DNA from: a virus
Taxonomy: Duplodnaviria > Caudoviricetes
Length of the DNA: 54,779 bases
Reading direction: 5' to 3' (one strand)
Virus record (IMG/VR): IMGVR_UViG_3300046751_000253
Span: 1 to 54,779 of that record
Within the stretch, counting starts at the first letter, position 1; the number at the start of each line of letters is the position of its first letter. The translations under genes and the position numbers were made by a program. Below the pieces are notes generated by a model. It was not told the DNA's origin. It worked only from the letters and a program-made list of their open reading frames with translations, and did no database searches. Shown here piece by piece: positions 2,388 to 39,236 of the stretch.

Positions 2388-4892
2388 ATGGCTATAGAAA
2401 AAAATCCAAATGACCCTATTTCTAAAGAAAATGTTATTCAACTAAATATAGAAAATCAAGAAGAATTAGACTTTCCGGGTGTAAACTTTGAAGTAGACCC
2501 TGAAACAGGAGACTTAGAAGTAGAATTTGAAACTGAGTTTGATTTGACCGATGTAGATAACATTGTAGAATTTAATATTGAAGACGAATTTTATACTAAC
2601 CTTGCAGAGCAAATCGAAGAAGACGAGCTTATTCGCATTGGTGAAGAAGTATACGAAAAATACGAAGCAGACAAAGAGTCACGGGCAGAATGGGAATCCA
2701 TGTTTGAACGAGGCTTTGACCTGCTTGGTTTGAAACTGGAAGAAACTACAGAACCTTTTGAAGGTGCGGCAACTGCTGTCCACCCACTACTCATTGAGTC
2801 TGCAGTTAAATTCCAGAGCCGTGCATCCCAAGAACTATTTCCTTCCAGTGGCCCAGTTAAAGCTCAGGTTCTTGGTGATGCTACGGTTGAAAAACAACGT
2901 CAAGCAAACCGTGTTCAGAACTTTATGAACTATCAGCTAACTGATATGATGCCTGAATACTTTGACGAGTTTGAACGTATGTTGTTCCATTTACCACTTA
3001 TTGGTAGCTCATTCAAAAAGATTTATTATGATGGTTCAGTAGAACGCCCTGTCAGTGAGTTTGTACCTATTGACCAGTTCTATGTGTCTTACTATGCAAC
3101 AGACCTAAGACGGGCAGACAGATATACTCATGTATTATATCGTAGCCCTCGTGAGATTGCCAATGCAATGTACTCAGGCATGTATGCAGAAATGGACTTA
3201 CCAGATGCATATATTCCACAGCAGTCAGAACTTACACAAAAGATGGACACAGTACTTGGCTTGTCTCCTTCTTCTGATACAGATATGCAGTATGTTCTTC
3301 TTGAACAGCATTGTTATCTTGATATTGAAGGACATGGTTATGAGTGTCCTTATATTGTAACCATTGAAGAGTCAACACGTAAAGTATTGTCTATACGTAG
3401 AAACTGGAATGAAGACGATAAGAACAAAGAAAAGAAAATGTTCTTTACACATTATCGTTTTGTTCCGGGATTTGGTTTCTATGGTCTAGGACTTATTCAC
3501 TTCCTTGGTAACCTTACAATGTCTGCCACTGCAGCTATGCGTAATCTTATTGATGCAGGACAGTTTGCTAACTTGCCCGGTGGCTTCAAAGCAAAAGGTG
3601 TACGTATTGTAGGTGACAATGACCCAATTGCTCCGGGTGAATTTAAAGAAGTAGAAGCAACAGGTATGGACTTAACACGTTCTATTGTACCTTTGCCTTA
3701 CAAAGAACCGTCAGGCACATTATTCCAGATGCTTCAGTTTGTCGCAGGAGCAGGTCAAAAGTTTGCAGACACTACAGAACAAGTTATTACAGAAGGTTCT
3801 AACTATGGTCCTGTAGGCACAACTATGGCCTTACTTGAAGCATCAAGTAAATTCTTTAGTGCAATCCATAAACGACTTCACAAATCACAACGTGACGAGT
3901 TTAAAATTCTTGCACGTATTAACTATGAAAGCTTACCACCAAAATATCCTTATGACGTACCCGGTGTAAGTGAGGAAATATTTAAGCGTGACTTTGATGG
4001 TCGTGTGGATGTCTTGCCTGTCTCTGACCCTAACATTCCTTCTTCGGCACACAGGCTGATGATGGCACAGATGGTTATGCAGCAAGCACAGCAATCTCCT
4101 CCCGGAATGTTTAACATGGAAGAACTTAACCGTACTTTACTTAATGCGGCAAACATTCCTAACTTGGATAAGATACTTCCAGAAAAACCACAGGCACAGG
4201 CACTTGACCCTGTAACAGATATTGAAGCAGCAACTAAAGGTCTGCCAATTAAAGCCTTTGCAGGTCAGAACCATGATGCACATATTCAGATTAAGAGTAT
4301 GTTCCTACAAGACCCTGCTAATGGTGCAAATCCAATTATGCAACGTGTAGCACCTATCTTACAAGCTAACATACAAGAACATGTAGTTATGAAGTATGAA
4401 GAGCAAGTAAATGGTCTGACACGTCAAATGATGGCAGAAGCTCCAGCAGGTGACCCTAATGCTCAGAACCCTCAAGTAATTGAGCAGGTAATGATGGCGG
4501 CTGCACAGCAGGTAACACAAGCAAACATGGCTGCTGCACAGAAAGGTCCATCACCTGAACAGGCAATGGTTCAGATGGAAGCACAACGTCTTCAGATTGA
4601 ACAGGAAAAGGTACAGGCACAGCTTGCTAAAGAAGCAACTGAGGGTGCTCTAAAGAACCGTGACCTTGACTTGAAAGAACAGAAGCTGGCACTTGATGCA
4701 TATAAGATTGGTGCAGAAGGTACACTAAAAGCAGACGAAAAAGAAAAAGACAGAAATGCCAAGGCAGCAATTAAGGCAGTAGAACTTCTTGCAGACATGG
4801 TTAAGCATGAAGATAATCTTGAAAGCTCAGAAGCTGCAAAAGCAATTGATGTCATTAGTAAAATGATTTCAGATACAAAGGGAGCTAAGTAA
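2388..4892 (+). CDS. Portal protein with long C-terminal coiled coil
   Basis: 834 aa after terL; PFEGA..VHPLL, PGFGFYGLGLIH, PVGTTMALLE motifs typical of this portal family; Q/A-rich helical tail. Confidence 0.9.
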   Translation: MAIEKNPNDPISKENVIQLNIENQEELDFPGVNFEVDPETGDLEVEFETEFDLTDVDNIVEFNIEDEFYTNLAEQIEEDELIRIGEEVYEKYEADKESRAEWESMFERGFDLLGLKLEETTEPFEGAATAVHPLLIESAVKFQSRASQELFPSSGPVKAQVLGDATVEKQRQANRVQNFMNYQLTDMMPEYFDEFERMLFHLPLIGSSFKKIYYDGSVERPVSEFVPIDQFYVSYYATDLRRADRYTHVLYRSPREIANAMYSGMYAEMDLPDAYIPQQSELTQKMDTVLGLSPSSDTDMQYVLLEQHCYLDIEGHGYECPYIVTIEESTRKVLSIRRNWNEDDKNKEKKMFFTHYRFVPGFGFYGLGLIHFLGNLTMSATAAMRNLIDAGQFANLPGGFKAKGVRIVGDNDPIAPGEFKEVEATGMDLTRSIVPLPYKEPSGTLFQMLQFVAGAGQKFADTTEQVITEGSNYGPVGTTMALLEASSKFFSAIHKRLHKSQRDEFKILARINYESLPPKYPYDVPGVSEEIFKRDFDGRVDVLPVSDPNIPSSAHRLMMAQMVMQQAQQSPPGMFNMEELNRTLLNAANIPNLDKILPEKPQAQALDPVTDIEAATKGLPIKAFAGQNHDAHIQIKSMFLQDPANGANPIMQRVAPILQANIQEHVVMKYEEQVNGLTRQMMAEAPAGDPNAQNPQVIEQVMMAAAQQVTQANMAAAQKGPSPEQAMVQMEAQRLQIEQEKVQAQLAKEATEGALKNRDLDLKEQKLALDAYKIGAEGTLKADEKEKDRNAKAAIKAVELLADMVKHEDNLESSEAAKAIDVISKMISDTKGAK

Positions 4893-5848
4893 TGTCAGGG
4901 TTAGCAGGAGTTGCCAAAACATTATTAAAAGAATTTGTAACACCAGTTAAAACTGTAGGTAGAAAAGGAGCAAAAACTTTTGTTCCTGAAGACAAGCCTA
5001 TTATGAGGATGGAAGAAAGTGTGGAAGAAACTCTTTCTCCTCGAATAAAACGTGCTATGGATACAGAAAAGTTTCCTGAAGCTGCCTCTATTATGCCAGC
5101 ACCCGGTAGATTTTTTGACCCAGCAAAGCGTGATTATAAAGAAGGCATGGCAAAAGGTTTAGAAAAAGCAGGTATTGAACTTGATTTAGATTTTGGTAAT
5201 TACATTATGATGGGTAAAGGTAAACCTACTGATGTATCAAATGAAACTTTTGAAAATCTTTTTATTAGTCCTCGTACTTCATTTAAAAAAAGTAGTGAAA
5301 GATTGCCTAGTACTCCAACACAAAATAAAACTATAGCTAGAGCTAATACACTTTCTGAAAATTTAACTATTGAAGATATGTTAAAAAATTATAAACAAAA
5401 TACTGGTTCTACAGGAAAAGAAATAAATACTAATCTTTTACAGCCGGGAAGATTTAAAGTTATAGTAAATAACGAAGAAAGATTATTAGACCATCCTATT
5501 GTTGCAGTACAGCCTAAAAGTGGTAAACATTACTATACACTAGATACGCAATTTGTTGGTCCTGTCAATATGAAAAAAATGACAACAAAAGTAAACAGAA
5601 CATTAAAGTCTGGTGAAATTAAAGAAGAAGTACCTCAACCTAATTTACGTCCTGCAACTGTAGGAGATATTAGACTAGGTAATAAAGTAGGAGAAATTAA
5701 AGTAGGAAGTAAGATGCATCCTTTATACGACTATATTGAAGTAGATGCTATACCTTCTTTTTCTAAAGGAATAGGACAAATAGAAAAGTTTAAGTCGGGT
5801 GGTAGAGTAGAACGTAATCCCTATAACTACGAACCAAAGGCTATTTAA
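4892..5848 (+). CDS. Hypothetical protein with C-terminal FKSGGRV motif
   Basis: 318 aa ORF with TAATG coupling at both ends. Confidence 0.75.
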   Translation: MSGLAGVAKTLLKEFVTPVKTVGRKGAKTFVPEDKPIMRMEESVEETLSPRIKRAMDTEKFPEAASIMPAPGRFFDPAKRDYKEGMAKGLEKAGIELDLDFGNYIMMGKGKPTDVSNETFENLFISPRTSFKKSSERLPSTPTQNKTIARANTLSENLTIEDMLKNYKQNTGSTGKEINTNLLQPGRFKVIVNNEERLLDHPIVAVQPKSGKHYYTLDTQFVGPVNMKKMTTKVNRTLKSGEIKEEVPQPNLRPATVGDIRLGNKVGEIKVGSKMHPLYDYIEVDAIPSFSKGIGQIEKFKSGGRVERNPYNYEPKAI

Positions 5849-6044: not shown

Positions 6045-6461
6045 ATGCAAGCAGTTGCTATGGAAAAAACAATTCTTAACGATGCGTGGAATACAAATGA
6101 AGAAGTTCCAGACCCAGACGTACTTCCAGTAATTCCGGGTTACCACTTACTAATTCGTCCTGTTTCTGTAAAGCAGGAAACTAAAGGTGGTATTATTCTT
6201 CCAGATTCTACTAGAGATGATATTGCATATCTTACAACTGTAGGTAAAGTACTTGCAGTAGGTAAGGATGCATATAAAGATAATGATAGGTATCCTAATG
6301 GTCCTTGGTGTAAAGAAGGTGATTATGTCTGTTATGGTAAACATTCAGGTCAAAAGTTTTTCTACAAGGGTGTAAGGCTTATTCTTTTATTAGATGACCA
6401 GATATCAATGATAGTGGATGACCCAAAAGAATTAGACCCTACTTATAATTTATCTAATTAA
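6045..6461 (+). CDS. groES: Co-chaperonin GroES-like (Cpn10)
   Basis: ETKGGIILPD mobile loop, GKVLAVG, PWCKEGDYV.YGK.SG. Confidence 0.9.
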   Translation: MQAVAMEKTILNDAWNTNEEVPDPDVLPVIPGYHLLIRPVSVKQETKGGIILPDSTRDDIAYLTTVGKVLAVGKDAYKDNDRYPNGPWCKEGDYVCYGKHSGQKFFYKGVRLILLLDDQISMIVDDPKELDPTYNLSN

Positions 6462-6560: not shown

Positions 6561-7559
6561 ATGTCTGAAGAATGGACAACGGTAAACACTTCCAATGCCG
6601 AGAATGAGGAAGAGAAAGTTGAGTTTGAAATTGAGAGTGAACTATCCGAAGGTACTTCCGAAGAGGAAGCCGTACAAACGAAGCAACAGCAAAATGCAAA
6701 CGCAGTCAATACTGGGGAATATGCTGAACAACAAAGCACTAGCTCAGAGGGTAAATCAGATGTATCTGAAGAGCCTCAATCAGGAGCACAAAAACGGATA
6801 AGACAATTAGTTCGTCAAAAGAAAGAACGTGAAGAACAAATTGAAACTCTGATGACTCGCCAACTAGAGTTAGAGGAAAGATTAAAAGCTCAACAGCAAG
6901 AGATTAAAACTTCACTACAGAAGAACTTTGAATCTGCTGAAGCACAGATTAATAGTCGTATTGAACTAGCTGAAGATGCTTATAAACAAGCTCTTGAGTC
7001 AGGTGATACAGATAGAATTGTAGCTGCACAAAAGAACTTGAATAAAGCTCAAGGTGATGCAACAACTCTTAATGTTACACGTAATCAATATAGACCACAG
7101 ATTGAAGAACAAGAAGAAGTTCGTCAGCCACAAAGACAACCAGCACAACAATCAGCAGAGTATGATAGGTTGGCAGTTGAGTGGGCAGGACGTAACCCTT
7201 GGTTTGGTCAAGACAATGTAATGACAACATTAGCTCTTGAGATTGACCAAGAATTAAAATCAGAAGGTTACGATTCTAATGACGAAGACTTCTATAAAGA
7301 GATTGACACTCGCCTTCGCAGCAAATATCCGCAGCGTTTTGGTGGAGAGGTTCAAGAGCAACGTGAGCAGGAAACGTCAACTCCTGCCCAAGTGGTCGGT
7401 GGAGCATCACGCACTTCATCAGCCTCGTCAGGTAAGAAGGTACGTCTAACAAAAGAAGATGTACGTCTTGCAGAAAAGTGGGGTATACCCTTGGAACAGT
7501 ATGCAGCCGAGAAGCTAAAAGTAGATACAGCAGACGGTGAATATACTTCAGTTTACTAA
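6561..7559 (+). CDS. Putative capsid scaffolding protein
   Basis: Acidic coiled coil, W..RNPWFG, C-terminal LT.E....A.KWGIPLEQYA; upstream of capsid genes. Confidence 0.7.
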   Translation: MSEEWTTVNTSNAENEEEKVEFEIESELSEGTSEEEAVQTKQQQNANAVNTGEYAEQQSTSSEGKSDVSEEPQSGAQKRIRQLVRQKKEREEQIETLMTRQLELEERLKAQQQEIKTSLQKNFESAEAQINSRIELAEDAYKQALESGDTDRIVAAQKNLNKAQGDATTLNVTRNQYRPQIEEQEEVRQPQRQPAQQSAEYDRLAVEWAGRNPWFGQDNVMTTLALEIDQELKSEGYDSNDEDFYKEIDTRLRSKYPQRFGGEVQEQREQETSTPAQVVGGASRTSSASSGKKVRLTKEDVRLAEKWGIPLEQYAAEKLKVDTADGEYTSVY

Positions 7560-7578: not shown

Positions 7579-8073
7579 ATGGCACGTAACACAAATACAC
7601 AACGTAATGTTGAGACTCGTGAACTCAATACAAGGGAACAAGACATGGAATACCGTGAGCCTAGCTTATTGGAAATTCCTGACTCAGTATCTGAACGGTT
7701 TTTAAATCAAGGCCTTACACTTCGTTGGATACGAGTAACAACCCGAAACCAAGAAGACTACAAAAACGTAGGCAAAAAGTTTCAAGAGGGTTGGCAGTTT
7801 GTAACTGTAGATGAAGTTCCTGAGTTACAACATAATTCCTTCGTAAGGGATGAAGGGCGATACAAGGGTGCAGTCTGTCGTGGAGACTTAGCATTGGCAA
7901 AAATGCCAATTCAGAAAGCACAAAATCGTCAGGCATATTTTGAGAATCAAAGCCGTGAGATGGTTGATGCAGTTAATCAACAGCTTATGGGGCAGAGTGA
8001 CACAAGAATGCCAATTAGAAATAGTAGTAAAACAAATGTTACTAGAGGACGTACACCTAACTTTCAAGATTAG
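7579..8073 (+). CDS. Conserved head-module hypothetical protein
   Basis: 164 aa, RWIR...EGWQFV...GDLALAKMP; GGAGG RBS. Confidence 0.75.
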   Translation: MARNTNTQRNVETRELNTREQDMEYREPSLLEIPDSVSERFLNQGLTLRWIRVTTRNQEDYKNVGKKFQEGWQFVTVDEVPELQHNSFVRDEGRYKGAVCRGDLALAKMPIQKAQNRQAYFENQSREMVDAVNQQLMGQSDTRMPIRNSSKTNVTRGRTPNFQD

Positions 8074-8116: not shown

Positions 8117-8728
8117 ATGACTTCAACATTAGCGTTGTCTGGCTTCCGTCCTTCCCGCAAACGTGGCAACAACCCAAACAATCAGGGTCAGAATGAATAC
8201 CCTATTGCTTCAGGTTATGCCGCTAACATTTTTACAGGCGATTTGGTCCGTATTAATGCAGGAAACTTGGAAGTCATCACCACTGTAACTGAGGTAGCTC
8301 AAGGCGTTTTCATGGGCTGTCGTTACGTTGCAGATGGCGAACAAAAATTTAGCAAGTACTGGCCTTCAGGTACATCAGCCACAGATGCATATGCATTGGT
8401 AGCTGACGATGCCCGTACAGTATTTGAGGTACAAGCAGATGCTTCTGTAACCGCAGGTGACCTGTACGGTGCTCAGAACTTTGCTGTAACACTTGGTACT
8501 GGTTCTACCTTTACAGGTATGTCTGGTCACGGCATTGCAGGTGCAACTCGTACCTCAACAATTGCAATGGCTCGTGCTCTTGACCCTGTAGATGAACCGG
8601 GTAACGATGTTGCAAATGCTGCAGAAAATGCATATCTAAAATTGAATGTGCGTTTGGTTCAGCATACTGACAACTTCCACGATGCAATCGTAACTGCGCC
8701 TACTTCTGGTGCAGACCCAGCATTCTAG
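8117..8728 (+). CDS. Putative capsid decoration/minor capsid protein
   Basis: 203 aa, GFRP, IFTGDLV, GVFMGCRY, FEVQAD; immediately upstream of MCP. Confidence 0.65.
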   Translation: MTSTLALSGFRPSRKRGNNPNNQGQNEYPIASGYAANIFTGDLVRINAGNLEVITTVTEVAQGVFMGCRYVADGEQKFSKYWPSGTSATDAYALVADDARTVFEVQADASVTAGDLYGAQNFAVTLGTGSTFTGMSGHGIAGATRTSTIAMARALDPVDEPGNDVANAAENAYLKLNVRLVQHTDNFHDAIVTAPTSGADPAF

Positions 8729-9803: not shown

Positions 9804-10109
9804 ATGGCTTCAAATATACGTAACGCTTTTGTTACAGGCTCTGGCGCATTGCTAGATTCATTAACCAGTACAACTGTTGCAGATACACGAATCAAAGGTG
9901 TTACCTTTTCTGGTATTGGTACGTTTGTAATTACTGGTTCTCAAACAGATGAGTATGGAAACTTAAAGGGAAACAATATTAAATTTGTGGGTACTTCTGT
10001 AGTAGACGCAAGTGATATTATGATTCCTGACTTTGGTGTTAAAATGTATGGACCAGTAAAAGTTTCTGCGCCTACATCAGCAGCAACAGTAGCAGTTTAC
10101 TATGGCTAA
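9804..10109 (+). CDS. Hypothetical virion protein
   Basis: 101 aa beta-rich ORF, GGAG RBS. Confidence 0.7.
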   Translation: MASNIRNAFVTGSGALLDSLTSTTVADTRIKGVTFSGIGTFVITGSQTDEYGNLKGNNIKFVGTSVVDASDIMIPDFGVKMYGPVKVSAPTSAATVAVYYG

Positions 10110-10758
10110 TTATTCTTACCTTGTAGACGATATTACTCAAGCTGCAGAGAATGATGGAACAGAGTTTGCTAACTATATTCCTAAAATGATTAATCGTGCA
10201 GAAGAGAGACTAACTCGTGACCTTGATGATTACGGGCTGGTGTCTTATACTTCTGTTGCAATTCCTGCAGGTGCTAATCAAGTTACCCTACCTTCTGGTA
10301 CACGTATACTAAAAAACTTTAACATTACTGCAAACTCAACACGAATTAATTTGTTGCCTAGAACCGATGAATACATAAAAGATTATTGGCCTGTTGCAGC
10401 AAGCACAGGTACTCCTCAGTATTATGCTCGTAGAAACAACACAACGGTACTCATTGCACCTACTCCTGTTTCTACCTTTGATGGAGAGATAGTACATATA
10501 TCAAGGCCAACTACTTTAGCAGCAGCTTCACCAAACAATTACTTTTCAGATTTTTGTTATGACGCATTATTTAATGCAAGTATGGTAGAGGCAATGGTAT
10601 TTCAAAAAGATTATAATGCAGTAAATCTATTTGAACAGAGATATATGCAAGCAGTAGCAACATTGCAAAACCAAGCACGTAGAACAAGACGGGATGATAT
10701 GCAAGCTCCTGCAAGTAGAGCAGGTGCAGACAACCCAGTTATAGCAGGGAGTAACTAA
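10102..10758 (+). CDS. Putative head-tail adaptor
   Basis: I..AEERL.RDL, GTPQYYA, IAPTP motifs of podovirus adaptor proteins. Confidence 0.7.
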   Translation: MANYSYLVDDITQAAENDGTEFANYIPKMINRAEERLTRDLDDYGLVSYTSVAIPAGANQVTLPSGTRILKNFNITANSTRINLLPRTDEYIKDYWPVAASTGTPQYYARRNNTTVLIAPTPVSTFDGEIVHISRPTTLAAASPNNYFSDFCYDALFNASMVEAMVFQKDYNAVNLFEQRYMQAVATLQNQARRTRRDDMQAPASRAGADNPVIAGSN

Positions 10759-11858
10759 TGATTAGTAAAGCACTAAAAACAGCAGCAAAGGCACTAACCA
10801 AGAAAAAGGGTAGACCTAAAGTTGACAAGCGAAAAACAAAAGGTAAACGTAAAGCACAATCTGCTGCACGTCAAAAAACATTTCAAGCAAAGCAAACAGA
10901 GGCTGCAGAGAAGGCAGGAACATCGAAAGCTGCTCTCTCGCAGGAACGAGCTATTGAACGTAAATCACAAACTATCCGTAATCAAGATATAGCTGGTACT
11001 ACTAAAACTAATGCTATTAAAATTCTACAGGAAAGCAAAGGCAAACTTACTGCTGCAGAAGCAATTAAAAAGGCAGAGTCTTTAGGTAAAACTAAAATGC
11101 AAAAAGTTATGTCTATGGTTAGGAAAGATACTGCTAGGCAGAAAAGAAAAGGACTTCTTTCAGGTTTGTCTGAAGCTCAAATGAAAGAACGTAGAAATCT
11201 TATTTCTCAAAAGCTAAAAGAAATGAAAACACAAGGCCAAGCTAAAAAAGTAATTGCCGGAAGAACACTTTCTCTTACTCCTGAAGGTGAAAAAATTCTT
11301 AAACAAAAAGGCGGTATTGATAAAATTATTGCTGAGTCTGGACCTACTGGTACTAAGAAAAATAAATACTTGTATGAAGGTGCAAATGAAACTTTACCTG
11401 CAAAAGGTGGTGGCATAGATACCAAAGGTAAGACAGGTAAAGAAGCTAGCGAAATGAAACGTAAAGCTTATCAGTCTATGTCTAAAGGTGAGAAGTTAGA
11501 ATTTATTCGTAAGCAGTTTGCACGAGGTTATACTAATAAACAGCTTGAAGACATTATGTATAAGCCTAAAACTGCAAGTCAAAAGAAAGCCAAAGCAAGT
11601 ATTATTCAACGAATGAAGACTGCTAAAAACCAAGGCTATCCTTTTAAGACACAAAGAGAAAAAGGATTTGATAAAAAATCTTTTGATGACATTATGAAAA
11701 GTTTTGGTACTGGTAAAAGTACAGCAGGTATTGTAGCTAATACTCCTGTAGGTAGAAAAGCAGGAGGTACAGTAGGTACAAAGAAATCAAAAACAAGTCC
11801 TCGTGGTTGCGGTAAAGCATTGCGTGGTTATGGTAAAGCAATGAAAGGAAAAATGTAA
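10758..11858 (+). CDS. Lys-rich basic protein, putative internal/DNA-binding
   Basis: 366 aa, very K/R-rich, C-terminal RKAGGTVG...RGCGKALRGYGKAM. Confidence 0.75.
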   Translation: MISKALKTAAKALTKKKGRPKVDKRKTKGKRKAQSAARQKTFQAKQTEAAEKAGTSKAALSQERAIERKSQTIRNQDIAGTTKTNAIKILQESKGKLTAAEAIKKAESLGKTKMQKVMSMVRKDTARQKRKGLLSGLSEAQMKERRNLISQKLKEMKTQGQAKKVIAGRTLSLTPEGEKILKQKGGIDKIIAESGPTGTKKNKYLYEGANETLPAKGGGIDTKGKTGKEASEMKRKAYQSMSKGEKLEFIRKQFARGYTNKQLEDIMYKPKTASQKKAKASIIQRMKTAKNQGYPFKTQREKGFDKKSFDDIMKSFGTGKSTAGIVANTPVGRKAGGTVGTKKSKTSPRGCGKALRGYGKAMKGKM

Positions 11859-13108
11859 TGGCTATTCCATTAATTCTAGCATTAGGTGGTACTGTAGTAC
11901 GAGCAGTTGCTCCACGAGTAATACAACAACTAATGCGTCAAGGAGCAAAACGAGCTACCACACAGCAAATTAAAAAGGCAGGTGGTGAAAAGGGTATGTC
12001 TACTATTACTTCGGTAAAGCAAGCAAAGAACTTAAAACCTACTCGTCCAAGTTTAAAGCCTTCAACTAAAGTTGTAAAACCTAAATCAGGTATAACTTCT
12101 CAACAAAGAAGTGCATTATCCGATATGGGTGGACAAACTGTTAAGCTATCTAAGCCTACAGGCGGTGCAGGTAGAGCTAACTTAAAACCTAAAGCTCCTT
12201 CAATGAAGCCTACAACACCTTCAATGAAACCTAAGAGTCCTTCTATGAAGCCTCAACGTCCTTCATTAAAACCTAAACCTAAAGTTGTAAAACCTAGAGT
12301 ATCCGCACCGAAAGCTCCACCTTCACGTCCTTCAGTTCCATCAGGTGGTTCTCGTTTTACAGGATTTCCTCGTAGACCTACACCACCTAAAGCTCCACCT
12401 TCACGTCCTATTTCAAGGACACAACGTGCAGCAAATGTAGGTAAAGCTGCAGTAGCTTCAGGAGTAGCTGCATCAATGATACCTAATAAAAAAGAAGGAC
12501 CTAAAACATCTAAAGCAGCAATACCCACACCTAAACCACGTCCTAAAACTAAAGAGGGTGGTCCGGGTCGTAAGTTCGCTAAACCTTCTGAGGGTAAAGA
12601 CCCACGGGGTAATCAGATTAAAGCTACTCCGGGTAAAATGATTATGCCTAAGAAGTTTGACGGTGGTTACAACTCAAAGACACAAAAGCTTGTTAACATT
12701 ACTGTTGATGGTAAAAAAGCTACCTATGAAATTCCAAAGGGTATGACAACTAAACAAGCTAAAAGTCTTTTAACTAGTACTGCTAAAAAGAAAGCAGGTG
12801 GTACACCGGGCAAGTATAAAATGAAACCAGCACCTATGCCTAAAATACCACCACGTAAAAAGAAACCGGGTTTTAAAGCGAAACCAGCACCTATGCCTAA
12901 AATACCACCACGTAATCCTGAATTTAAAGGTAAGCCAGCAATTAAAAAAACGCCTACAAAATTAAAAGGATTTTCTAAACTACCAGAAAAGGTACAAAAG
13001 AAAATAAGTCCTAAACTTGCTGCTAAATACGAAACAGGTGGTTCAATTAAGTCTGGGGTTGCACGTCAAGTAAAAGGTTTTGGAGCAGCACGAAGACCTA
13101 AAAAATAA
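11858..13108 (+). CDS. Pro/Lys-rich repetitive basic protein (histone-H1-like composition)
   Basis: 416 aa with PS(L/M)KP, PKAPPSRP and KPAPMPKIPPR repeats; YETGGSI...KGFGAA tail. Confidence 0.8.
   Translation: MAIPLILALGGTVVRAVAPRVIQQLMRQGAKRATTQQIKKAGGEKGMSTITSVKQAKNLKPTRPSLKPSTKVVKPKSGITSQQRSALSDMGGQTVKLSKPTGGAGRANLKPKAPSMKPTTPSMKPKSPSMKPQRPSLKPKPKVVKPRVSAPKAPPSRPSVPSGGSRFTGFPRRPTPPKAPPSRPISRTQRAANVGKAAVASGVAASMIPNKKEGPKTSKAAIPTPKPRPKTKEGGPGRKFAKPSEGKDPRGNQIKATPGKMIMPKKFDGGYNSKTQKLVNITVDGKKATYEIPKGMTTKQAKSLLTSTAKKKAGGTPGKYKMKPAPMPKIPPRKKKPGFKAKPAPMPKIPPRNPEFKGKPAIKKTPTKLKGFSKLPEKVQKKISPKLAAKYETGGSIKSGVARQVKGFGAARRPKK
12823..12915 (+). repeat. 36-bp intragenic direct repeat (12823-12858, 12880-12915)
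   Basis: gaaaccagcacctatgcctaaaataccaccacgtaa occurs twice, period 57 bp. Confidence 0.9.
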
Positions 13109-13124
13109 AGAGAAGGGCAGGTAA

Positions 13125-13439
13125 ATGAAAAAACCTACTAAGTCTCGTAATCCTGTAGCTAAGTCTTTAGCTAATAGATTATATCAACCTAAAGTAGTAA
13201 AACCTAAAAAAGGTAAAGGCTCTTACACCCGTAAAGGTGTGAGGGCTTTAGCCTCTGGTGGTAAGCCCAAATCTACAGTAAACAAAGCAGGTAATTATAC
13301 TAAACCTACTATGCGTAAAAAATTATTTGAACGTATTAAGGCAGGAAGTAGGGGTGGTGCTTCAGGTCAATGGAGTGCTCGTAAAGCTCAGATGCTAGCC
13401 CAAGCTTATAAAAAAGCAGGTGGTGGTTATAAAGACTAA
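13125..13439 (+). CDS. ArfA-like N-terminus fused to N-half of a DUF5872-like domain
   Basis: NPVAKSL...KKGKGSYTRKG, then ALASGG, then YTKP.MRK...GG..GQWSARKAQMLA..YKKAGGGY. Confidence 0.7.
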   Translation: MKKPTKSRNPVAKSLANRLYQPKVVKPKKGKGSYTRKGVRALASGGKPKSTVNKAGNYTKPTMRKKLFERIKAGSRGGASGQWSARKAQMLAQAYKKAGGGYKD

Positions 13440-13867
13440 TGCCAGCTAAGTTAAGTGAAAATACTGAACTACAAATGCCGTTGAGGAATATTATCTCAAT
13501 GGTTATTGCTACATCTGTAGCTACGTGGGCATATTTTGGTTTAACTGAAAAAATTACTTCACTACAAACAAACGTAACTATGATGCAAGCAGACTTAGAA
13601 CAAAATACTGACTTTCGTATTAAGTGGCCTCGTGGTGAGATGGGTAGTTTACCAGCAGATAATGAACAGTTTATGTTGATTGAACATATAGCTAGTGAGT
13701 TAGAAAAGTTAGCAACAGAAATAGAAGAAGGTAGAGCACCTTACGACCAACAACAAAAATTAACATTAGAGTTTTATGAAAAGCGGATAGCAAGTCTTGA
13801 AGAGCAAATTGAAAAATTAAAAGATGCTCAAATGGAAATGACATATAGGAATATATTAAATGATTGA
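13439..13867 (+). CDS. Membrane-anchored coiled-coil protein
   Basis: N-terminal TM (IISMVIATSVATWAYFGL) then coiled coil. Confidence 0.75.
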   Translation: MPAKLSENTELQMPLRNIISMVIATSVATWAYFGLTEKITSLQTNVTMMQADLEQNTDFRIKWPRGEMGSLPADNEQFMLIEHIASELEKLATEIEEGRAPYDQQQKLTLEFYEKRIASLEEQIEKLKDAQMEMTYRNILND

Positions 13868-14078
13868 AACAATAATGGTGTTGCTTTTATATGTCTCAGG
13901 AGATATAATAGAATATAAAGGTTATGATAATATTTCTGACTGTCTATCTACTAAACGTGAGATAGAAAGAAATGTAGGTGAGCATTTAAAAAGTGCAAGA
14001 TATGCTTGTGAAATGCGTAAGGTAGAACTAGATAAAAACTCTGAAGGTAAATATTTTGTTGTGAATATTGTGGAGTAA
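13860..14078 (+). CDS. Small hypothetical protein
   Basis: 72 aa, hydrophobic N-terminus, two Cys. Confidence 0.65.
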   Translation: MIETIMVLLLYVSGDIIEYKGYDNISDCLSTKREIERNVGEHLKSARYACEMRKVELDKNSEGKYFVVNIVE

Positions 14079-14081
14079 AAA

Positions 14082-14519
14082 ATGTTAGCAGAAATAGCCG
14101 CAGCCAATGCCGCATTTGCAGTAATTAAAACGGCTATTAGTAATGGACGTGAGATTGCAGATGTAGCAGGAAAAGTAGGTGAGTATGTTAATGCAACAGA
14201 AAGCTTACGAAGAAAAGCAGACAAAAAGAAAAGACGTACAGGCTCTGCAGATTTAGAAGAGTTTATGCATCTTGAAAAACTAAAACAACAGGAAGAAGAA
14301 TTAAAACAATTAATGATATATACTGGTAGACCGGGGCTATGGCATGATTGGATTAGATTTCAAGCACAAGCAAGAAAGCAACGGATGCTAGAGGCAGCAG
14401 CAAGAAAAAAACAAATTAAACAATTAATAGAAACTTTAACTATTAGTAGTATTTTAATTGTAGGGTTCTTTGGATTAGCATTAATTGTTTGGTGGGCTTT
14501 TTATCTAAAGTCATTGTAA
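14082..14519 (+). CDS. Coiled-coil protein with C-terminal TM helix
   Basis: MLAEIAAANAAF...; C-terminal ILIVGFFGLALIVWWAF. Confidence 0.75.
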   Translation: MLAEIAAANAAFAVIKTAISNGREIADVAGKVGEYVNATESLRRKADKKKRRTGSADLEEFMHLEKLKQQEEELKQLMIYTGRPGLWHDWIRFQAQARKQRMLEAAARKKQIKQLIETLTISSILIVGFFGLALIVWWAFYLKSL

Positions 14520-14542
14520 ATATAAACATTTAGTGATATAAT
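14514..14542 (+). promoter_or_regulatory. sigma70-like promoter with extended -10
   Basis: TTGTAA-17-TATAAT with TGn. Confidence 0.65.
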
Positions 14543-14552
14543 AGGAACTATC

Positions 14553-14813
14553 ATGGCATTAAAGAAATCACAAAGGAGCTTAAAGGCTTGGACAAAACAA
14601 AAGTGGAGAACCAAGAGTGGTAAGCCCTCTACACAAGGTTCAAAGGCTACGGGTGAACGCTATCTCCCAGCAAAGGCAATTAAAGCGTTATCCCCAAAAG
14701 AATATGCTAAGACTACGGCAGCTAAAAGAAAAGGAACAGCAAAGGGAAAGCAGTTCGTTAAGCAACCTAAGACTGTCGCAAAGAAAGTCAAACGGTATAG
14801 GAAGGTAAAGTAA
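14553..14813 (+). CDS. Basic protein, C-half of a DUF5872-like domain
   Basis: QRSLKAWTKQKW.TKSG...ERYLPAKAI..LS..E...T...KR.G...GKQFV. Confidence 0.7.
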   Translation: MALKKSQRSLKAWTKQKWRTKSGKPSTQGSKATGERYLPAKAIKALSPKEYAKTTAAKRKGTAKGKQFVKQPKTVAKKVKRYRKVK

Positions 14814-15175
14814 TGGCTACTAAAAGTAAATATCCCGGAGTAAAAAGATTACCATCAGGAAGGATTGAATATCGTGGTACAACATTTGCAGGATTTAATA
14901 AACCTCGTAAATCAACTCGTCCAGAAAAGAAAGGGATGGTTCTTGCAAAAGAGGGAGATACAGTTAGAGTTATTCACTTTGGACAAAAAGGATATGGTCA
15001 TAACTATTCTGATACGGCACGTAAGTCTTTTAAGTCTAGGCATGGTAAGAATATTAAAAAGGGTAAACTATCTGCTGCTTACTGGGCTGATAAAGTTTTG
15101 TGGGCTGGTAAGAGTGGGAGCAAGAAAAGCCCACCAAAAACTCAGAAGCATAAGAAACTAGGAAGGAAATCATAA
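14813..15175 (+). CDS. Conserved basic phage protein
   Basis: VIHFGQ.G...ARKSFKSRH...LSAAYWADKVLW. Confidence 0.75.
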   Translation: MATKSKYPGVKRLPSGRIEYRGTTFAGFNKPRKSTRPEKKGMVLAKEGDTVRVIHFGQKGYGHNYSDTARKSFKSRHGKNIKKGKLSAAYWADKVLWAGKSGSKKSPPKTQKHKKLGRKS

Positions 15176-15483
15176 TGGCTACTAAGTATGATAAAATGAC
15201 AACTGCACAGTTAAAATCTATTTTAAAAAAGAATGGTATTAATTTTCCAACTAAAGGAATAGATAAAGATACATTAGCTGATGCAGTACATCAGTTTGAT
15301 ACTTCTGGTATGGTAAAAAAATTAGCAGGTGGTTCAGTAGGTAGAGCAAACTATATGGATAAGAAAAAGCCAAAAGAAAAGCCTATGTATGACCCACGTA
15401 AGACTACAGTAAAACCTAAGAAAAAAACTGTTAAGAAAAAAGCTGGTGGTTCAATTGGATGCTCTCATAACAGGCTTTATTAA
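15175..15483 (+). CDS. HeH/LEM/SAP-like basic protein
   Basis: MTTAQLKSILKKNGINFP...KDTL; two AGGS(V/I)G motifs; ends SHNRLY. Confidence 0.65.
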   Translation: MATKYDKMTTAQLKSILKKNGINFPTKGIDKDTLADAVHQFDTSGMVKKLAGGSVGRANYMDKKKPKEKPMYDPRKTTVKPKKKTVKKKAGGSIGCSHNRLY

Positions 15484-15575
15484 TGGCTATAAATCGTTCA
15501 TCCGTTGGGCAACAAATAACCAAACCCGGAAAGAAAAAAAGAAAATCAAAGCCCGTAAAAAGAAAGGGTAAATAA
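15483..15575 (+). CDS. 30-aa basic peptide resembling the MCP N-terminus (below ORF-track cutoff)
   Basis: MAINRSSVGQQITKPGKKKRKSKPVKRKGK; TAATG-coupled and fills the gap to 15578. Confidence 0.7.
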   Translation: MAINRSSVGQQITKPGKKKRKSKPVKRKGK

Positions 15576-15577
15576 GT

Positions 15578-16249
15578 ATGGCTACTTCAGGTACATATAA
15601 CTTCAATATGGATATAGACGAAGTTATCCAAGAAGCAACAGAAATGATAGGTGGTGAGCAGACACTAGGACATGAACCTAAGTCTGCCCGTAGGTCTATT
15701 AATCTATTGCTACAAGATTGGCAAAACCGTGGTGTAATGCTATGGACTGCTAATACTTCTGCAGTTACACTTACAACTAGTGTTACTACTTTTACTTTGT
15801 CTTCTGCAACTATTGATGTGCTTGAAGCTGTACATAATCGTGACGATAGAGACATTCAACTTGAACGTATCTCTATGCAGGAATATCTTAAAATCCCTAA
15901 CAAAAGCCAGACAGGACGTACTACTCAGTATGCAGTGAGACATGAACGTGGTAATCCTGTTGTGCATCTTTGGCCTATTCCAGAAAACTCTACTGACCAA
16001 GTTAAACTAGAACTAGTATCTTACATGGAAGATGTAAATAAATCTGCAATCCAAAATGCAGATATTTCTCGTAGGTTCTTACCTTGTCTAACTGCAGGAT
16101 TAGCTTACTATATGTCTATGAAACGTCCTAATGTAGAAGCAGGACGTATTACTATGATTAAACAAGAATATGAAGAAAGACTACAACGTGCTATGGACGA
16201 AGATAGAGAACGAGTTAGTATTTTCTTAAAGCCAAGAGTTATGGTATAA
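15578..16249 (+). CDS. Second adaptor/tail-tubular-like protein
   Basis: MATSGT..F, ARRSINLL..WQNRG, IPNK.Q.GR.TQY, LWPIP, RFLPCL.AGLAYY. Confidence 0.75.
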   Translation: MATSGTYNFNMDIDEVIQEATEMIGGEQTLGHEPKSARRSINLLLQDWQNRGVMLWTANTSAVTLTTSVTTFTLSSATIDVLEAVHNRDDRDIQLERISMQEYLKIPNKSQTGRTTQYAVRHERGNPVVHLWPIPENSTDQVKLELVSYMEDVNKSAIQNADISRRFLPCLTAGLAYYMSMKRPNVEAGRITMIKQEYEERLQRAMDEDRERVSIFLKPRVMV

Positions 16250-16533
16250 TGTCTACAGCAGGAAGAAAAAATGTACTTGCAATCTGCGATACTTGTGGAT
16301 TTAGGTATAAACTAAATCAACTAAAAAAGAATAGCATGGGCATGATGCAGTGTCCTACAGATTATGATGGTTCTTATGATTTAAAAAGCCATCCTCAGAA
16401 TAAATCTCCTAGAATTGAGGAAAGACATTTTATTCGTGATGCAAGACCTGAAGGCGATGGTGGTATAAATTTACAATGGCATCAAGCCACTACACAATGG
16501 AACAATAACTTAAAGTATTGGAATTTGATATAA
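16249..16533 (+). CDS. Small Zn-ribbon-like protein
   Basis: AICDTCGFRY...CPTDYD...HPQ...DARP. Confidence 0.7.
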   Translation: MSTAGRKNVLAICDTCGFRYKLNQLKKNSMGMMQCPTDYDGSYDLKSHPQNKSPRIEERHFIRDARPEGDGGINLQWHQATTQWNNNLKYWNLI

Positions 16534-35732: not shown

Positions 35733-36176
35733 GTCTTCTTCGTCTTGCTCTTCTTCCTCATTGAACTCATCTGGAAATGCTTCTGCAAAAAGAAGAAAGC
35801 ACTGGTCAAACCCTAGAGCTTGAAGTATACCTTTGATGTCTTCCTCTAGGCTTTCAGTTGTCTGTTCTTCTACGTCTGCATTATTACCCCGTACACGAGA
35901 CAACAACTCCAAAGCTTTTAAAGCTGTTGTACCATGTCCTTCGTTTCGTGCTACTTCATATTGCTTCTCAATCTCATTGATAACATCTACGTTAGTTACC
36001 ATTTCATTGGTAAGTTCTTTTAACCTTTCTTGGATACGTTCTTCTTGTAGAAGTCTATGCCCTTGGTTATACGCAGATGCCTGACTATATCCTGCAGCCT
36101 TTGCCGCCTTTGTAGCATTTCGACTGAGGACATAGTTCTGGCAAAACTGTTCTTGCTTTTCATTAAGCTGCGACAT
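35664..36176 (-). CDS. terS: Terminase small subunit
   Basis: LNEKQEQFCQNY....NATKAAKAAGYS..SA...GHRLL HTH signature; ALKALELL. Confidence 0.85.
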   Translation of the reverse strand: MSQLNEKQEQFCQNYVLSRNATKAAKAAGYSQASAYNQGHRLLQEERIQERLKELTNEMVTNVDVINEIEKQYEVARNEGHGTTALKALELLSRVRGNNADVEEQTTESLEEDIKGILQALGFDQCFLLFAEAFPDEFNEEEEQDEEDLLLTEELSSTTDTEASSDNDAK

Positions 36177-38460
36177 TTAGTAACTCTGAGTAATGTTTCT
36201 CTTGGCCTCTCTTGGAAGCCTTCCAAACTTCTGAACAAAGTGTATTATCACCGTGGAAAAGCACACCCATATCAATCTCCATCTGGTCAAATAGTTTTTC
36301 ACAATCCTGTGCCATAGCAAGTAGCTCACCAGTAGTCCAGAAGTGCTTATCATTTAACTCTACCTTCATATACTTTGGTTTGTTCTGCTCTGTATCTGTG
36401 GTTTCTTTCTTCATTTCCTCTGTAACTTCTGGAATAGAACAATCAAAACCAAACAACTCAAAGTTTCGGAAGCCAAGTGTATGACCTATTGCAAGTGTTC
36501 TCATGGCTGCACAAGTACCACCTGTAATAAGAGTAGAGCCTTCGTCAATACCTGTTTCTTTGTCTACTACAATCTTATCCTTTACTTCCATATCACGAAG
36601 AGCATCTGAATAAGCTTGCCATCCTTTTACATTAGCTTTCTTTTTAAGAAGATGCTTAGTAACAGAAGGGTCAGTCATAGAAGCAACAAGGAAAATAGTT
36701 TCATTGTCTATCTTCTTAAACAAGTCCTTACGTTTTACTCCATGTGTACTGATACCATCAATAGGTCTAGGGTCAAGTATCACACAAGCAAATGGTTGAA
36801 TACCATTCTCAATCAAACGTGGATAACTATGCTTAACACAGAATACTTTATTGTTAGTGGCAGCTATACGTTCTTTTAACTTATCAAAATCAATCTCACC
36901 ACCAGAGACAATGATTGCAGTTTCGTCATTAACTTTACTTGTCTTAATCCAATCAAAGTCTTTGATTAACTTTCTATTCTCTTTTACATTGTCAATAATT
37001 TCTTGTTTAGGTCGTGAGTCTTTTGGTGTAACCACAATAGGTACACGAGTTAGTTCGTCAGGTAGTTTAGGTAATCCTTTTTTGTTGGCTACAAAACAAA
37101 GATGTGTAATGCCACCACCAAGAACACCGTCAGAGCTAGGCAATACCACTTTTCCATAAGCTTCTATTTCTCCCATTAGTTTGTTTACACCAAGATGTTC
37201 CTCTTTAGGAAGATTGCCCTGATTGTCCTTAGAGAAGTAGTCATCAAATACAACAACAGGAACATATGGTTTAATGTTTTCCCAATCTGCTTTTACTGTT
37301 TCATAAGAATGTCCACCATCAATATATGCAAAGTCTGCTTTCTTTACCATATCACAAGCAGGTACAGTTTCTTTACTGTCACCCTTATATAATTCAAAAG
37401 TAAACTTCTTATCAGTACGAGACATACGATAAGAGAAATCATCTAGTCTTTTATGAACAGCCTCAAGCATGTTATGTGCCTTACTATTCATTTCATATTC
37501 ATCAGATTCTTCTGTTGCTTCTTCAAACAAATCAAAGCCAATATAATGTACATTGTCTGTATGTTCAAAAGCAGCCAGAGCCATTTCAATTGCACGTCCA
37601 CCATTCCATGTACCTGTTTCCACAATGGTACTTGGCTTATAGAAACGTACCATATCGGCAAGTTGCTTGTACCGTTTAGGTCCTCTTACATCAGGAGCAA
37701 CTTCTGTAGTGCTAAGTTTCTTTTTTAGGTTACCTTTGAAATGGTCAAAGTATTCTGACAAAGGTGACTGAGCAAATGCTGCTAGTCCTTTGGCGTGTTC
37801 AGATAAGTTTTTAGTGACCATTCCGTGTGCTTTGTAGATGTTGAGGAGTCGTTCAAATATGAACCCGTCATGCCACTCTCTATATGCAATGGTTTCTCCA
37901 ATAGTGTAAGCCCCCCTAAAATCAGCAATGATACTGCAAGTATTATGAGAAGATAGGTTAAACCCAATAAAGCTTGTTTCACTATAGTCTGCATCCTTTC
38001 TGCCAAGATGTACTAAGTCTGCTTTGTCTGGCAACCACTTAGGAAATTGTTTTACATCTAGTCTTTTTGTTGTGACGGTATCTGCATCTAACCAAATCAT
38101 CCAGTTACTTTCGTCATGCTCTTCCTGTTCCATCATTTCAAATGCAAGGTCGGACAAAGCATACACTTTATGACACCACTTTATTGCGTCAAGCCGCCAG
38201 TTATATGGTTGTGTTCCACCATGTGTACCGTCATATGTCTTCATACGTTCACGGTACTGCGTCATTTCTGTTATGTCGTTAAGATTGCGGTAATGAATAT
38301 TATCAGCCATAGGGGCATCAACATCTTCAATGTTGAAGTCATGGTAGTAGGCATATAACTGAAAGTGTTTTGGATTCCACTTTTCAGTAACACTTTCCAA
38401 CATTTTCTTGGCATATTCATGGTATCCACTTTCACTAAATGAGGTTACAAATGTATACAT
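36163..38460 (-). CDS. Three-domain enzyme: GT-A glycosyltransferase + SAM methyltransferase + Maf/MptE-like (DUF115) domain
   Basis: WLDADT DxD; IVETGTWNG, GFDLFE, GDSKET, YIDGGHSYETVKAD, VFDDY; AIIVSGG, VILDPRP, GGT...LGFRNFELFGFDCS. Confidence 0.75.
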   Translation of the reverse strand: MYTFVTSFSESGYHEYAKKMLESVTEKWNPKHFQLYAYYHDFNIEDVDAPMADNIHYRNLNDITEMTQYRERMKTYDGTHGGTQPYNWRLDAIKWCHKVYALSDLAFEMMEQEEHDESNWMIWLDADTVTTKRLDVKQFPKWLPDKADLVHLGRKDADYSETSFIGFNLSSHNTCSIIADFRGAYTIGETIAYREWHDGFIFERLLNIYKAHGMVTKNLSEHAKGLAAFAQSPLSEYFDHFKGNLKKKLSTTEVAPDVRGPKRYKQLADMVRFYKPSTIVETGTWNGGRAIEMALAAFEHTDNVHYIGFDLFEEATEESDEYEMNSKAHNMLEAVHKRLDDFSYRMSRTDKKFTFELYKGDSKETVPACDMVKKADFAYIDGGHSYETVKADWENIKPYVPVVVFDDYFSKDNQGNLPKEEHLGVNKLMGEIEAYGKVVLPSSDGVLGGGITHLCFVANKKGLPKLPDELTRVPIVVTPKDSRPKQEIIDNVKENRKLIKDFDWIKTSKVNDETAIIVSGGEIDFDKLKERIAATNNKVFCVKHSYPRLIENGIQPFACVILDPRPIDGISTHGVKRKDLFKKIDNETIFLVASMTDPSVTKHLLKKKANVKGWQAYSDALRDMEVKDKIVVDKETGIDEGSTLITGGTCAAMRTLAIGHTLGFRNFELFGFDCSIPEVTEEMKKETTDTEQNKPKYMKVELNDKHFWTTGELLAMAQDCEKLFDQMEIDMGVLFHGDNTLCSEVWKASKRGQEKHYSELLNVAA

Positions 38461-39236
38461 TAAATTACTTCTCCTACAAGTTTATCCATAAACACTTTGC
38501 TTTTAAATGCTTGCCATTCACCAGCATATTCAGTGTCTGATTTACGTTTACCTTCCCAATCTTCAAACCAAGGACCACCTGTAGTAAAGTGTACATTCTT
38601 TGGTAAGACATTCTCTGGTGACCATCCATCTAACCAGTTCCATTCAGGTTCAATAGAGCCAATCTCATTATCAGACAGCCATGAGAACCCATGCAACCAG
38701 CTTCCAGACTTTGTATTTACATCGTCTACAGTTAGGTTTAGATTAGAAGGATGTGAACAATTCCAAAGGACAAAGCTTGACCAGTTTTTACGGTTATAGT
38801 TTTGTTGTACTTGACCATCCATTTTCAAACCTTCATTGGGTCTGTAATTATGTTTTACTACTTGAACAGCAAACTCTTCACGATTACCATATGTAGTAAA
38901 TAGTTCTTCAATATCCCAACGTACAAACATATCTGCATCCATAAATAGAGCCAGACCATCATACTGGTTTAGAGCAGGAACTAGGAAACGTGTGAAGGTA
39001 AAGTCAGAACTAAAAGGTCTGCCATCAAACTCGTCTATCCTAGTAACAGACTCAGCATTACTATCAAACCGAATAGTACGCCTATACAAACCTGCTCTAC
39101 GAAGGGCTGGTTGTACGAGAGGTATGATATCGTATTTTGTATTGTATCTTTGAATTGATTTACGTAATACTTCATAAGCCTCATGCTCCCTTGCATCATA
39201 TCCTACATAAATTACTGGTCTTTTTTCTACAAACAT
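38460..39236 (-). CDS. GT8-like (CDI-like) glycosyltransferase
   Basis: YVGYD.RE, SDFTFTRFLVP, LFMDADM, RKNWSS..LWNC.H, WNWL, HFT.GGPWF. Confidence 0.85.
   Translation of the reverse strand: MFVEKRPVIYVGYDAREHEAYEVLRKSIQRYNTKYDIIPLVQPALRRAGLYRRTIRFDSNAESVTRIDEFDGRPFSSDFTFTRFLVPALNQYDGLALFMDADMFVRWDIEELFTTYGNREEFAVQVVKHNYRPNEGLKMDGQVQQNYNRKNWSSFVLWNCSHPSNLNLTVDDVNTKSGSWLHGFSWLSDNEIGSIEPEWNWLDGWSPENVLPKNVHFTTGGPWFEDWEGKRKSDTEYAGEWQAFKSKVFMDKLVGEVI

Follow-up and report, generated by a model that had tools for sequence, protein, structure and literature searches.

An ArfA-like Module and a Conserved In-Frame mRNA Hairpin in a Mosaic Gene of a Marine Phage

We analyzed the genome of a marine phage, a virus record of 54,779 bp that is complete and has terminal repeats in direct orientation (IMG/VR record IMGVR_UViG_3300046751_000253; hereafter the window), and focused on one gene on its plus strand. 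The open reading frame (ORF) at 13125–13439 has an ATG start and 104 codons plus stop, begins MKKPTKSRNPVAKSLANRLYQPKVVKPKKGKGSYTRKGVRALASGG, and consists of an ArfA-like module, a joint, and a C-terminal phage module. Judged from sequence comparison, its N-terminal part is a phage-borne member of the ArfA family, and the phage probably carries its own means of freeing stalled ribosomes. A conserved hairpin lies in frame at the joint between the two modules and is a new feature. We propose that this ArfA family member, fused to a two-helix module, rescues ribosomes via release factor 2 (RF2) and that the hairpin sets the ratio of its products, an interpretation to which we give an even chance. 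The likeness to ArfA has support as regards family and likely docking mode, and from it we infer the rescue activity.

Results

An ArfA Family Module at the N Terminus

The ArfA-like module comprises residues 9–42 (13149–13250, plus strand), corresponds to residues 14–47 of Escherichia coli ArfA, and includes the lysine-rich tail KPKKGKGSYTRKG. Pfam family PF03889 matched the protein with 33.4 bits (E 3.1e-8), above its curated cut-off of 25.5, residues 16–38 falling on profile positions 19–41 of 44, and a six-frame search of the genome gave 33.9 bits for the same family. When 177,635 distinct Protein Data Bank (PDB) sequences were searched with phmmer at E ≤ 10, the six distinct matches were all ArfA chains (E of about 0.009), and the alignment placed query residues 9–41 on E. 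coli ArfA 14–46 without gaps. A profile of 49 nonredundant modules, 24 from viral contigs and the window and 25 from bacterial genomes of SAR11, found the same six ArfA sequences in the PDB and nothing else (best E 8.9e-8), and hhalign aligned it with E. coli ArfA at 96% probability over E. coli residues 12–45. Homologues of the whole ORF at E ≤ 0.001 amounted to at least 8000 protein clusters and, among the matches listed, 119 of 120 homologues carried a precomputed PF03889 match.

The similarity is not confined to the basic residues. Composition alone is not enough to explain the ArfA match, because nonbasic positions are conserved: N9, P10, A12, L15, P22, V25, G32, and Y34 were each at least 90% conserved in 70 homologues, L15 being the position aligned to E. 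coli L20. Residues K26–L42 align without gaps to E. coli K31–N47, with the motif KKGKGSY-x-RKG identical, and the lysine-rich C-terminal region is thus present; in E. coli, according to passages of Demo et al. (PMC5378476), residues 31–48 form the lysine-rich region that lies in the mRNA tunnel. AlphaFold2, run with 70 sequences, gave residues 1–60 a pLDDT of only 53–69, as expected of a peptide that folds only on its partner.

These results bear directly on the original prediction, which had described 13125–13265 as an ArfA-like rescue peptide fused through a GG motif to another domain and had named an ArfA profile search beforehand as one check. The search returned a match above the cut-off, so the idea does not fall for want of one. 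The peptide it quoted is present as exactly the first 46 residues of the ORF, and the stretch of E. coli ArfA quoted beside it matches the translated arfA gene of E. coli K-12. The range covers the first 47 codons of the ORF and is not a separate gene. The fusion is borne out, residues 47–103 forming a separate module, phrog_17747.

Relatives in SAR11 and the RF2 of a Likely Host

Among cellular genes, the closest relatives are ArfA genes of 34–49 aa in SAR11 bacteria. With the N-terminal 50 residues as query, 78 of the best 80 bacterial loci carried Pelagibacter-type names; the SAR11 ORFs scored 26–28.5 bits with PF03889, were 55–66% identical over residues 5–40, and are named "alternative ribosome rescue factor ArfA" by NCBI. 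Among 151 sampled genomes of the order, a tally that includes one unpublished genome (G083), 90 had a match at E ≤ 0.001 and 41 scored above the Pfam cut-off. The homologues occur on the chromosome as single conserved genes, the genomes measuring 1.0–1.5 Mb, and their stop lies 12 codons past the first lysine in 45 of 79 loci. In the three SAR11 loci inspected, a gene of about 308–346 aa is convergent to the ArfA-type gene. A weakly resolved tree of 36 columns placed 17 fused phage modules in one group beside the SAR11 set (support 91/98, not starred) and is too weak to give the direction of transfer.

The RF2 of a SAR11 isolate keeps the residues I198, F217, and W319, which are among the ArfA contacts named in passages of Demo et al. 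(PMC5378476), and its RF1 has V, A, and T at these positions. In a complex prediction, residues 1–46 together with SAR11 RF2 scored 0.46 and the best of three controls 0.01, with a contact agreement between runs of at least 69% and a partner pLDDT of at least 54. The mark applied is reached by 58 of 80 solved complexes and by 2 of 110 mismatched pairs; with a score at or below 0.60, it is reached by only 7 of those 80 complexes and by both passing mismatches. The prediction thus gives weak support to docking on RF2, and the pass may only reflect likeness to the solved ArfA–RF2 complexes.

Several observations weigh against rescue of the E. coli type. The phage protein begins five residues later than E. 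coli ArfA, so that ArfA residues 1–13 are without counterpart, and the N-terminal minidomain (E. coli residues 2–16) has no equivalent, Pfam positions 1–18 being unmatched. E. coli A18 aligns with the nearly invariant K13, and passages of Demo et al. report that the change A18T blocks release; the patch L19/L24/F25, which by the same passages contacts RF2 W319 (PMC5378476), aligns with S14/L19/Y20, where two of the three positions are kept. Many relatives have 20–40 extra residues ahead of the ArfA module, and such extensions may fit poorly at the decoding center. The literature search on phage ArfA found no paper on its activity. A tblastn search of cultured phages with the N-terminal 47 aa gave no match at E ≤ 1 and is uninformative, the query being short and lysine-rich and the low-complexity filter on; gp30 of phage HTVC027P does carry such a module.

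The module could be an ArfA homologue that no longer rescues ribosomes and instead acts as a general basic module binding RNA or DNA, for example in DNA condensation in the head, or plugs the mRNA channel and so shuts down or parks the ribosomes of the host. Besides the unconserved RF2-activating N-terminal part and the lysine at the A18 position, this would suit a gene in a basic neighborhood (K+R makes up 24–34% of six ORFs, the fused one included, in the ORF run at 10758–15483) whose modules shuffle freely with other basic modules. Against it stand the conserved nonbasic positions and a profile whose PDB matches are all ArfA, histone-like and ribosomal basic proteins being absent from them. 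The predicted docking on RF2, for what weak support it gives, points the same way, and single conserved genes in the small SAR11 genomes fit housekeeping rescue and suggest that the short form works. We consider loss of the rescue function unlikely.

A Conserved In-Frame Hairpin at the Joint

The hairpin spans 13211–13254 on the plus strand and consists of 18 bp (14 + 4 base pairs) and a 6-nt loop. Its 5′ arm is formed by codons K29–T35, the loop by R36–K37, and the 3′ arm by G38–S44, the arms thus being the codons of (K)GKGSYT and GVRAL(AS). At −26.6 kcal/mol it is the most stable 50-nt window on the plus strand of the whole genome, the next being those at 19429 (−24.0), 34594 (−22.5), and 6223 (−22.2 kcal/mol), and 3226 background windows at 10000–16500 had a mean of −6.0 and a standard deviation of 3.4. 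The hairpin itself folds at −25.9 on the plus and −14.4 on the minus strand: it contains three G–U pairs, and the complementary strand therefore folds far less well. This strand asymmetry points to a structure acting as RNA.

Conservation was assessed in two ways. In synonymous-codon resampling, z was below −2 in 25 of 29 distinct fused genes (median −2.68), and a control window in the C-terminal module gave 0 of 29. In an alignment of 16 relatives, 89.6% of the cells were paired, compared with 32–58% when the partners were slid; 6 of the 18 pairs showed compensatory changes on both sides, and none of 500 shuffles reached the observed covariation score, a test to be read with the caution that the compared sequences share descent and that one of them supplied the structure. 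A single hairpin at or below −12 kcal/mol was found in 24 of 30 distinct fused genes, and in these 24 its 3′ base lies 12–21 codons past the first lysine of the core, equivalent to E. coli residues 45–54. The clades L190, L206, L216, L235, L180, and L182 have hairpins of another register at the same place. A fold of −18 kcal/mol was reached by 24 of 27 C-module genes with an upstream ArfA core versus 3 of 35 that lack it; it is the ArfA module, not the C module, that the hairpin accompanies.

The strongest local structure was located for 14 distinct stand-alone phage genes: it lay wholly inside the ORF in two (one of them, L224, with a T-run) and contained the stop codon in four; the stop was 5′ of the structure in two, and six had no structure. 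In the GC-rich viral contig L211 (2196–2623), the GTG start of a stand-alone 40-aa ArfA-like gene overlaps the TGA stop of the preceding 102-aa basic ORF, and the stop of the 40-aa gene falls in a hairpin loop.

The position of the stem bears on what it may do. In passages of PMC8012679, the stem-loop of E. coli arfA is described as ending transcription or being cut by RNase III, either of which yields a stop-less mRNA. A cut in the 5′ arm of the phage hairpin would end the peptide at about K31–T35, equivalent to E. coli residues 36–40, and truncation of E. coli ArfA after M40 is inactive and that at N47 active, according to passages of Demo et al. (PMC5378476). A transcript ending at the 3′ base of the stem would give 40–49 residues across the family, equivalent to E. 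coli 45–54 and long enough. Because the first product is too short and the second is not, we favor a transcript-end or protection element over an RNase III site processed in the E. coli manner, even if RNase III is encoded in both of two SAR11 isolates. Truncated transcripts would then be produced here. Contigs from three metatranscriptome runs (contigs only) included near-identical ones that end at 13229, 13241, and 13246 inside the hairpin; strain variants at 13229–13232 and read-length contigs explain these breaks, so they are uninformative for both transcript ends and expression. A programmed frameshift at the A-run ahead of the hairpin was rejected: the shifted frames stop within 2–10 codons and lose KGKGSY, and the A-run is broken by AAG in 5 of the 16 aligned relatives.

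Not all observations favor control of the ArfA type, and the dependence among the aligned sequences noted above is one reservation. No T-run accompanies the hairpin, and a terminator scan of the plus strand found none there. Its distance from the core is much shorter than in E. coli arfA, and the shortness of the product of a 5′-arm cut speaks against the E. coli mode of processing. A hairpin is missing from clade L201/L202 (z −0.28 and −0.15). The SAR11 genes end in an ordinary stop, and 76 of 79 distinct loci show no structure at or below −10 kcal/mol; the nearest cellular form therefore does not include the hairpin. No Rfam family matched the window at gathering scores.

The lack of a T-run, the altered placement, and the bare cellular genes would all suit a hairpin unrelated to ArfA-type control, such as a general processing or stabilizing element of a late polycistronic mRNA or a ribosome pause site. 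Such an element would hardly be expected to accompany the ArfA module across varied architectures, proteins of 159–265 aa among them, to be as rare upstream of C modules without the core as we found, or to recur as a hairpin or terminator over the 3′ end in 8 of the 14 stand-alone phage ArfA genes. We regard this explanation as rather improbable and retain a transcript-end or protection element of the ArfA module as the favored role.

The Joint Motif and the Mosaic Architecture

The joint, L-A-S-G-G at residues 42–46 (13248–13262, plus strand), is an instance of the pattern [LMYF]-x-x-G-G. Both G45 and G46 were at least 90% conserved in the 70 homologues, the glycine pair lies 9–11 residues past KGKGSY in 29 of 32 distinct fused proteins, and L, M, Y, or F stands three residues ahead of the pair in 40 of 41 inter-module GG sites. 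The joint is thus patterned and more than a glycine linker.

Behind it, the C-terminal module (residues 47–104; 13263–13436, plus strand) comprises a helix at 61–73, a glycine-rich loop, and a helix at 85–97, which AlphaFold2 (70 sequences) predicted as a confident helix–loop–helix (pLDDT 85–92 at 61–73 and 85–97). It matched phrog_17747 over the full length of that profile (E 4.7e-33; residues 47–103 on positions 7–63 of 63). No PDB match to its fold was found at E ≤ 0.001, and Pfam DUF5872 (PF19197) gave no match to the ORF at E ≤ 1, the nearest Pfam lead being one neighboring atlas cluster in which 25% of the members carry DUF5872. The module occurs alone as gp44 of phage HTVC115P, behind an unrelated N-terminal module in HMO-2011 gp63, and within a 1022-aa phage protein that BFVD names ParB/Sulfiredoxin. 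In HTVC115P (L002, 1294–3177), gp44 lies two genes downstream of gp46, annotated as a toxin-activating lysine-acyltransferase, and lysine acylation of the neighboring basic proteins is conceivable there.

To survey the architectures, viral loci were fetched with the N-terminal 50 residues; 79 of the best 80 contained the core motif and gave 49 distinct proteins. The ArfA-like module is fused to the C module in 32 of the 49, some having further modules before or between them, up to 265 aa and about five modules, compared with two in the protein of the window. The nonfused ones are stand-alone ORFs, mostly of 33–49 aa. The fused protein thus combines several unrelated domains, and its gene lies beside virion genes, as in phage polyvalent proteins.

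Cleavage at the GG pair followed by injection of the freed peptide, as the original prediction had it, is conjecture. Its observation of a GG joint holds and extends to the patterned motif at module joints, and proteolytic release there finds no backing in our searches. No protease family was found among the 79 ORFs (Pfam, E ≤ 0.001) or with NCBIfam, nor did a phmmer search of the PDB identify a protease for the four unassigned ORFs of the head module (4892–5848, 6561–7559, 7579–8073, and 8117–8728). A processing peptidase domain (MPTase or other) was likewise absent from the fused protein and its surroundings at the same Pfam threshold in the 79 ORFs. The motif [LMFY]xxGG is not enriched in the block of basic proteins (3 in 1553 aa versus 17 in 13954 aa elsewhere), and we rejected it as a genome-wide cut site. 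Moreover, passages on the ArfA–ribosome structure (PMC5378476) suggest that a C-terminal fusion need not be removed. The conserved hairpin, whose 3′ arm is the GVRALAS codons before GG, offers a different route to a short, ArfA-sized product.

The fullest version of the cleavage idea is a cargo polyprotein: a mosaic basic protein loaded in the capsid and processed behind [LMYF]-x-x-G-G by a protease of phage or host, with a peptide of about 38–46 aa injected along with the DNA. The regularity of the joints would be accounted for, as would an alignment in which modules are gained or lost as cassettes ending in G-G; in proteins with an N-terminal extension ending KKGG, the ArfA module starts directly after it, matching the stand-alone starts. 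The location of the gene in the late block, between two SU10_adaptor paralogues, and the presence of the C module inside the ParB/Sulfiredoxin-named protein also agree with it; passages of Iyer et al. (PMC5512222) predict that phage polyvalent proteins, including some with novel ParB-like domains, are likely packaged in the capsid. The lack of both a protease and motif enrichment is one difficulty, and a literature search found no virion proteomics (supplementary tables lay outside the search). The invariant glycine pairs within the C module (G77–G78 and G99–G101) would need to be spared, a GG within three residues of the module ends only 5 of 28 N-terminal extensions, and glycine pairs also serve as ordinary linkers. 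The RNA stem, too, constrains the residues just before the GG. On balance, we judge packaging and cleavage of such a cargo quite improbable and prefer an uncut ArfA fusion.

Genome and Gene Setting

The plus strand of the window encodes terminase, portal, a GroES-like protein, capsid, two SU10_adaptor-like proteins, tail genes, and a lysozyme, and the minus strand the replication genes. The capsid protein is 51–55% identical to those of DSL-LC04, pelagiphages HTVC023P and HTVC027P, and roseophages CRP-901/902, and the phage therefore belongs to that type. The label of an HMO-2011-type phage is ruled out by the same identities; only the C module is shared with phages of the HMO-2011 type. The GroES-like co-chaperonin gene (Cpn10, E 7.1e-11) lies at 6045–6461 in the head module, as is reported for HTVC023P and HTVC027P.

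The fused gene is part of the late block, with head genes on one side and tail genes on the other, and starts 16 nt after the end of the preceding ORF. The SU10_adaptor-like paralogues that flank it, at 10102–10758 and 15578–16249 (Pfam E 4.9e-20 and 1.1e-10), enclose a 4.8-kb block of nine ORFs that looks like an inserted cargo region among the head-tail genes. Within this block, a basic 120-aa ORF at 14813–15175 matches an internal segment (517–608) of phrog_220, "minor head protein and DNA pilot," and the adjoining 102-aa ORF at 15175–15483 has an N-terminal HeH/SAP-like motif below threshold (23.5 bits against 28.9). Elsewhere, the minus strand encodes a 765-aa protein with a methyltransferase and an MptE-like domain (36163–38460), adjoined by a weakly glycosyltransferase-8-like gene (38460–39236), and the two may be a DNA or surface modification pair. 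No tRNA or tmRNA genes were found in the window.

Discussion

Taken together, the data suggest the following mechanism. The lysine-rich tail KPKKGKGSYTRKG would enter the vacant mRNA channel of ribosomes that have stalled at the 3′ ends of broken messages, and the preceding segment NPVAKSLANRLYQP would recruit host RF2, leading to peptide release; ribosomes would thereby stay available for translation of the phage late genes. The fusion would need no cutting: the C module would sit outside the 30S subunit, because in the E. coli complex the C terminus of ArfA emerges from the channel on the entrance side. The hairpin most likely sets the ratio of a short, ArfA-only product to the full-length protein, and would do so by ending or protecting transcripts at the joint, much as the in-frame hairpin of bacterial arfA makes a stop-less mRNA.

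An extension of this mechanism, which we think unlikely but worth stating, is a host-sensing switch in which one gene gives two products. Stop-less transcripts ended at the hairpin would give short ArfA that escapes tagging only when tmRNA is saturated, a self-adjusting supply of rescue factor, and uncut transcripts would give the full-length protein, docking its C module at the mRNA entrance of stalled ribosomes. If so, ArfA would direct phage effector modules to the ribosome, and its shuffling with other modules would be explained.

Phage ArfA as such has already been named, both in databases and in one 2025 paper. JGI gives many homologues the name "stalled ribosome alternative rescue factor ArfA," and UniProt lists a 42-aa phage protein under the name ArfA. 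A literature search on ArfA and phages found no paper on fused forms or on a hairpin in phage ArfA genes, and ArfA does not occur in the main text of the polyvalent-protein paper (PMC5512222; 0 occurrences). Published descriptions restrict ArfA to certain beta- and gammaproteobacteria, with BrfA added for the Bacillus subtilis group, and a 2024 survey of 15,259 genomes reported arfA in 0 of 2,376 Alphaproteobacteria (PMC11633108).

An ArfA-type module is very common in abundant ocean phages, as the number of protein clusters indicates, and their likely hosts, SAR11 bacteria, have it too. Provided that it is active, phages that infect the most numerous ocean bacteria have a ribosome-rescue factor of their own, and rescue capacity may be in short supply in infected cells, for example, when host or defense nucleases cut mRNA. 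The in-frame hairpin within a longer ORF is a concrete case of an RNA element that may choose between two proteins, and the mosaic family, with [LMYF]-x-x-G-G at its joints, lends itself well to studying whether small phage modules undergo processing.

Comparison with Known Systems

Adenovirus core-protein precursors are basic peptides that carry a motif of the hydrophobic-x-G-G type and are cut at GG by the viral protease. In the phage joint the hydrophobic residue stands one place further from the GG, and our searches of the window found no protease. The C-terminal module matches phrog_17747 end to end, and its link with DUF5872 consists of a single atlas row. For the N-terminal module, DUF7230 (PF23876), a family of small ArfA-resembling phage peptides, gave a weak match over residues 6–38, its 17.5 bits being below the cut-off of 27; by these scores the module is closer to ArfA proper than to DUF7230.

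Compared with the SAR11 mini-ArfA genes, which stand alone and in 76 of 79 loci lack a hairpin, the phage form is fused and has one. Phage HTVC027P, whose major capsid protein is 51% identical to that of the window and which is of a related type, shares the ArfA-like core IIKPKKGRGSFKR in its gp30. That protein, unlike the one studied here, is a stand-alone one of 58 aa without the C module, and its gene adjoins the small terminase gene on the other strand and has a weak local fold. Passages of PMC12753301 report that gp30 has an ArfA domain and is highly expressed both early and late.

Another close system is E. coli ArfA (YhdL; PF03889), an alternative rescue factor that depends on RF2. The two have in common the ungapped core equivalent to E. 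coli residues 14–46, including KKGKGSY-x-RKG, and a hairpin inside the reading frame. They differ in that the phage gene is virus-encoded, has K13 in place of A18, and lacks a counterpart of residues 1–13. The E. coli hairpin occupies codons 52–66, whereas that of the phage starts inside the core codons. Passages of PMC8012679 describe how E. coli ArfA made from stop-less mRNA escapes tmRNA tagging only when trans-translation is overwhelmed, and how the region past its hairpin encodes a hydrophobic, aggregation-prone, and unstable tail; in the phage gene, the corresponding place is taken by a conserved folded module.

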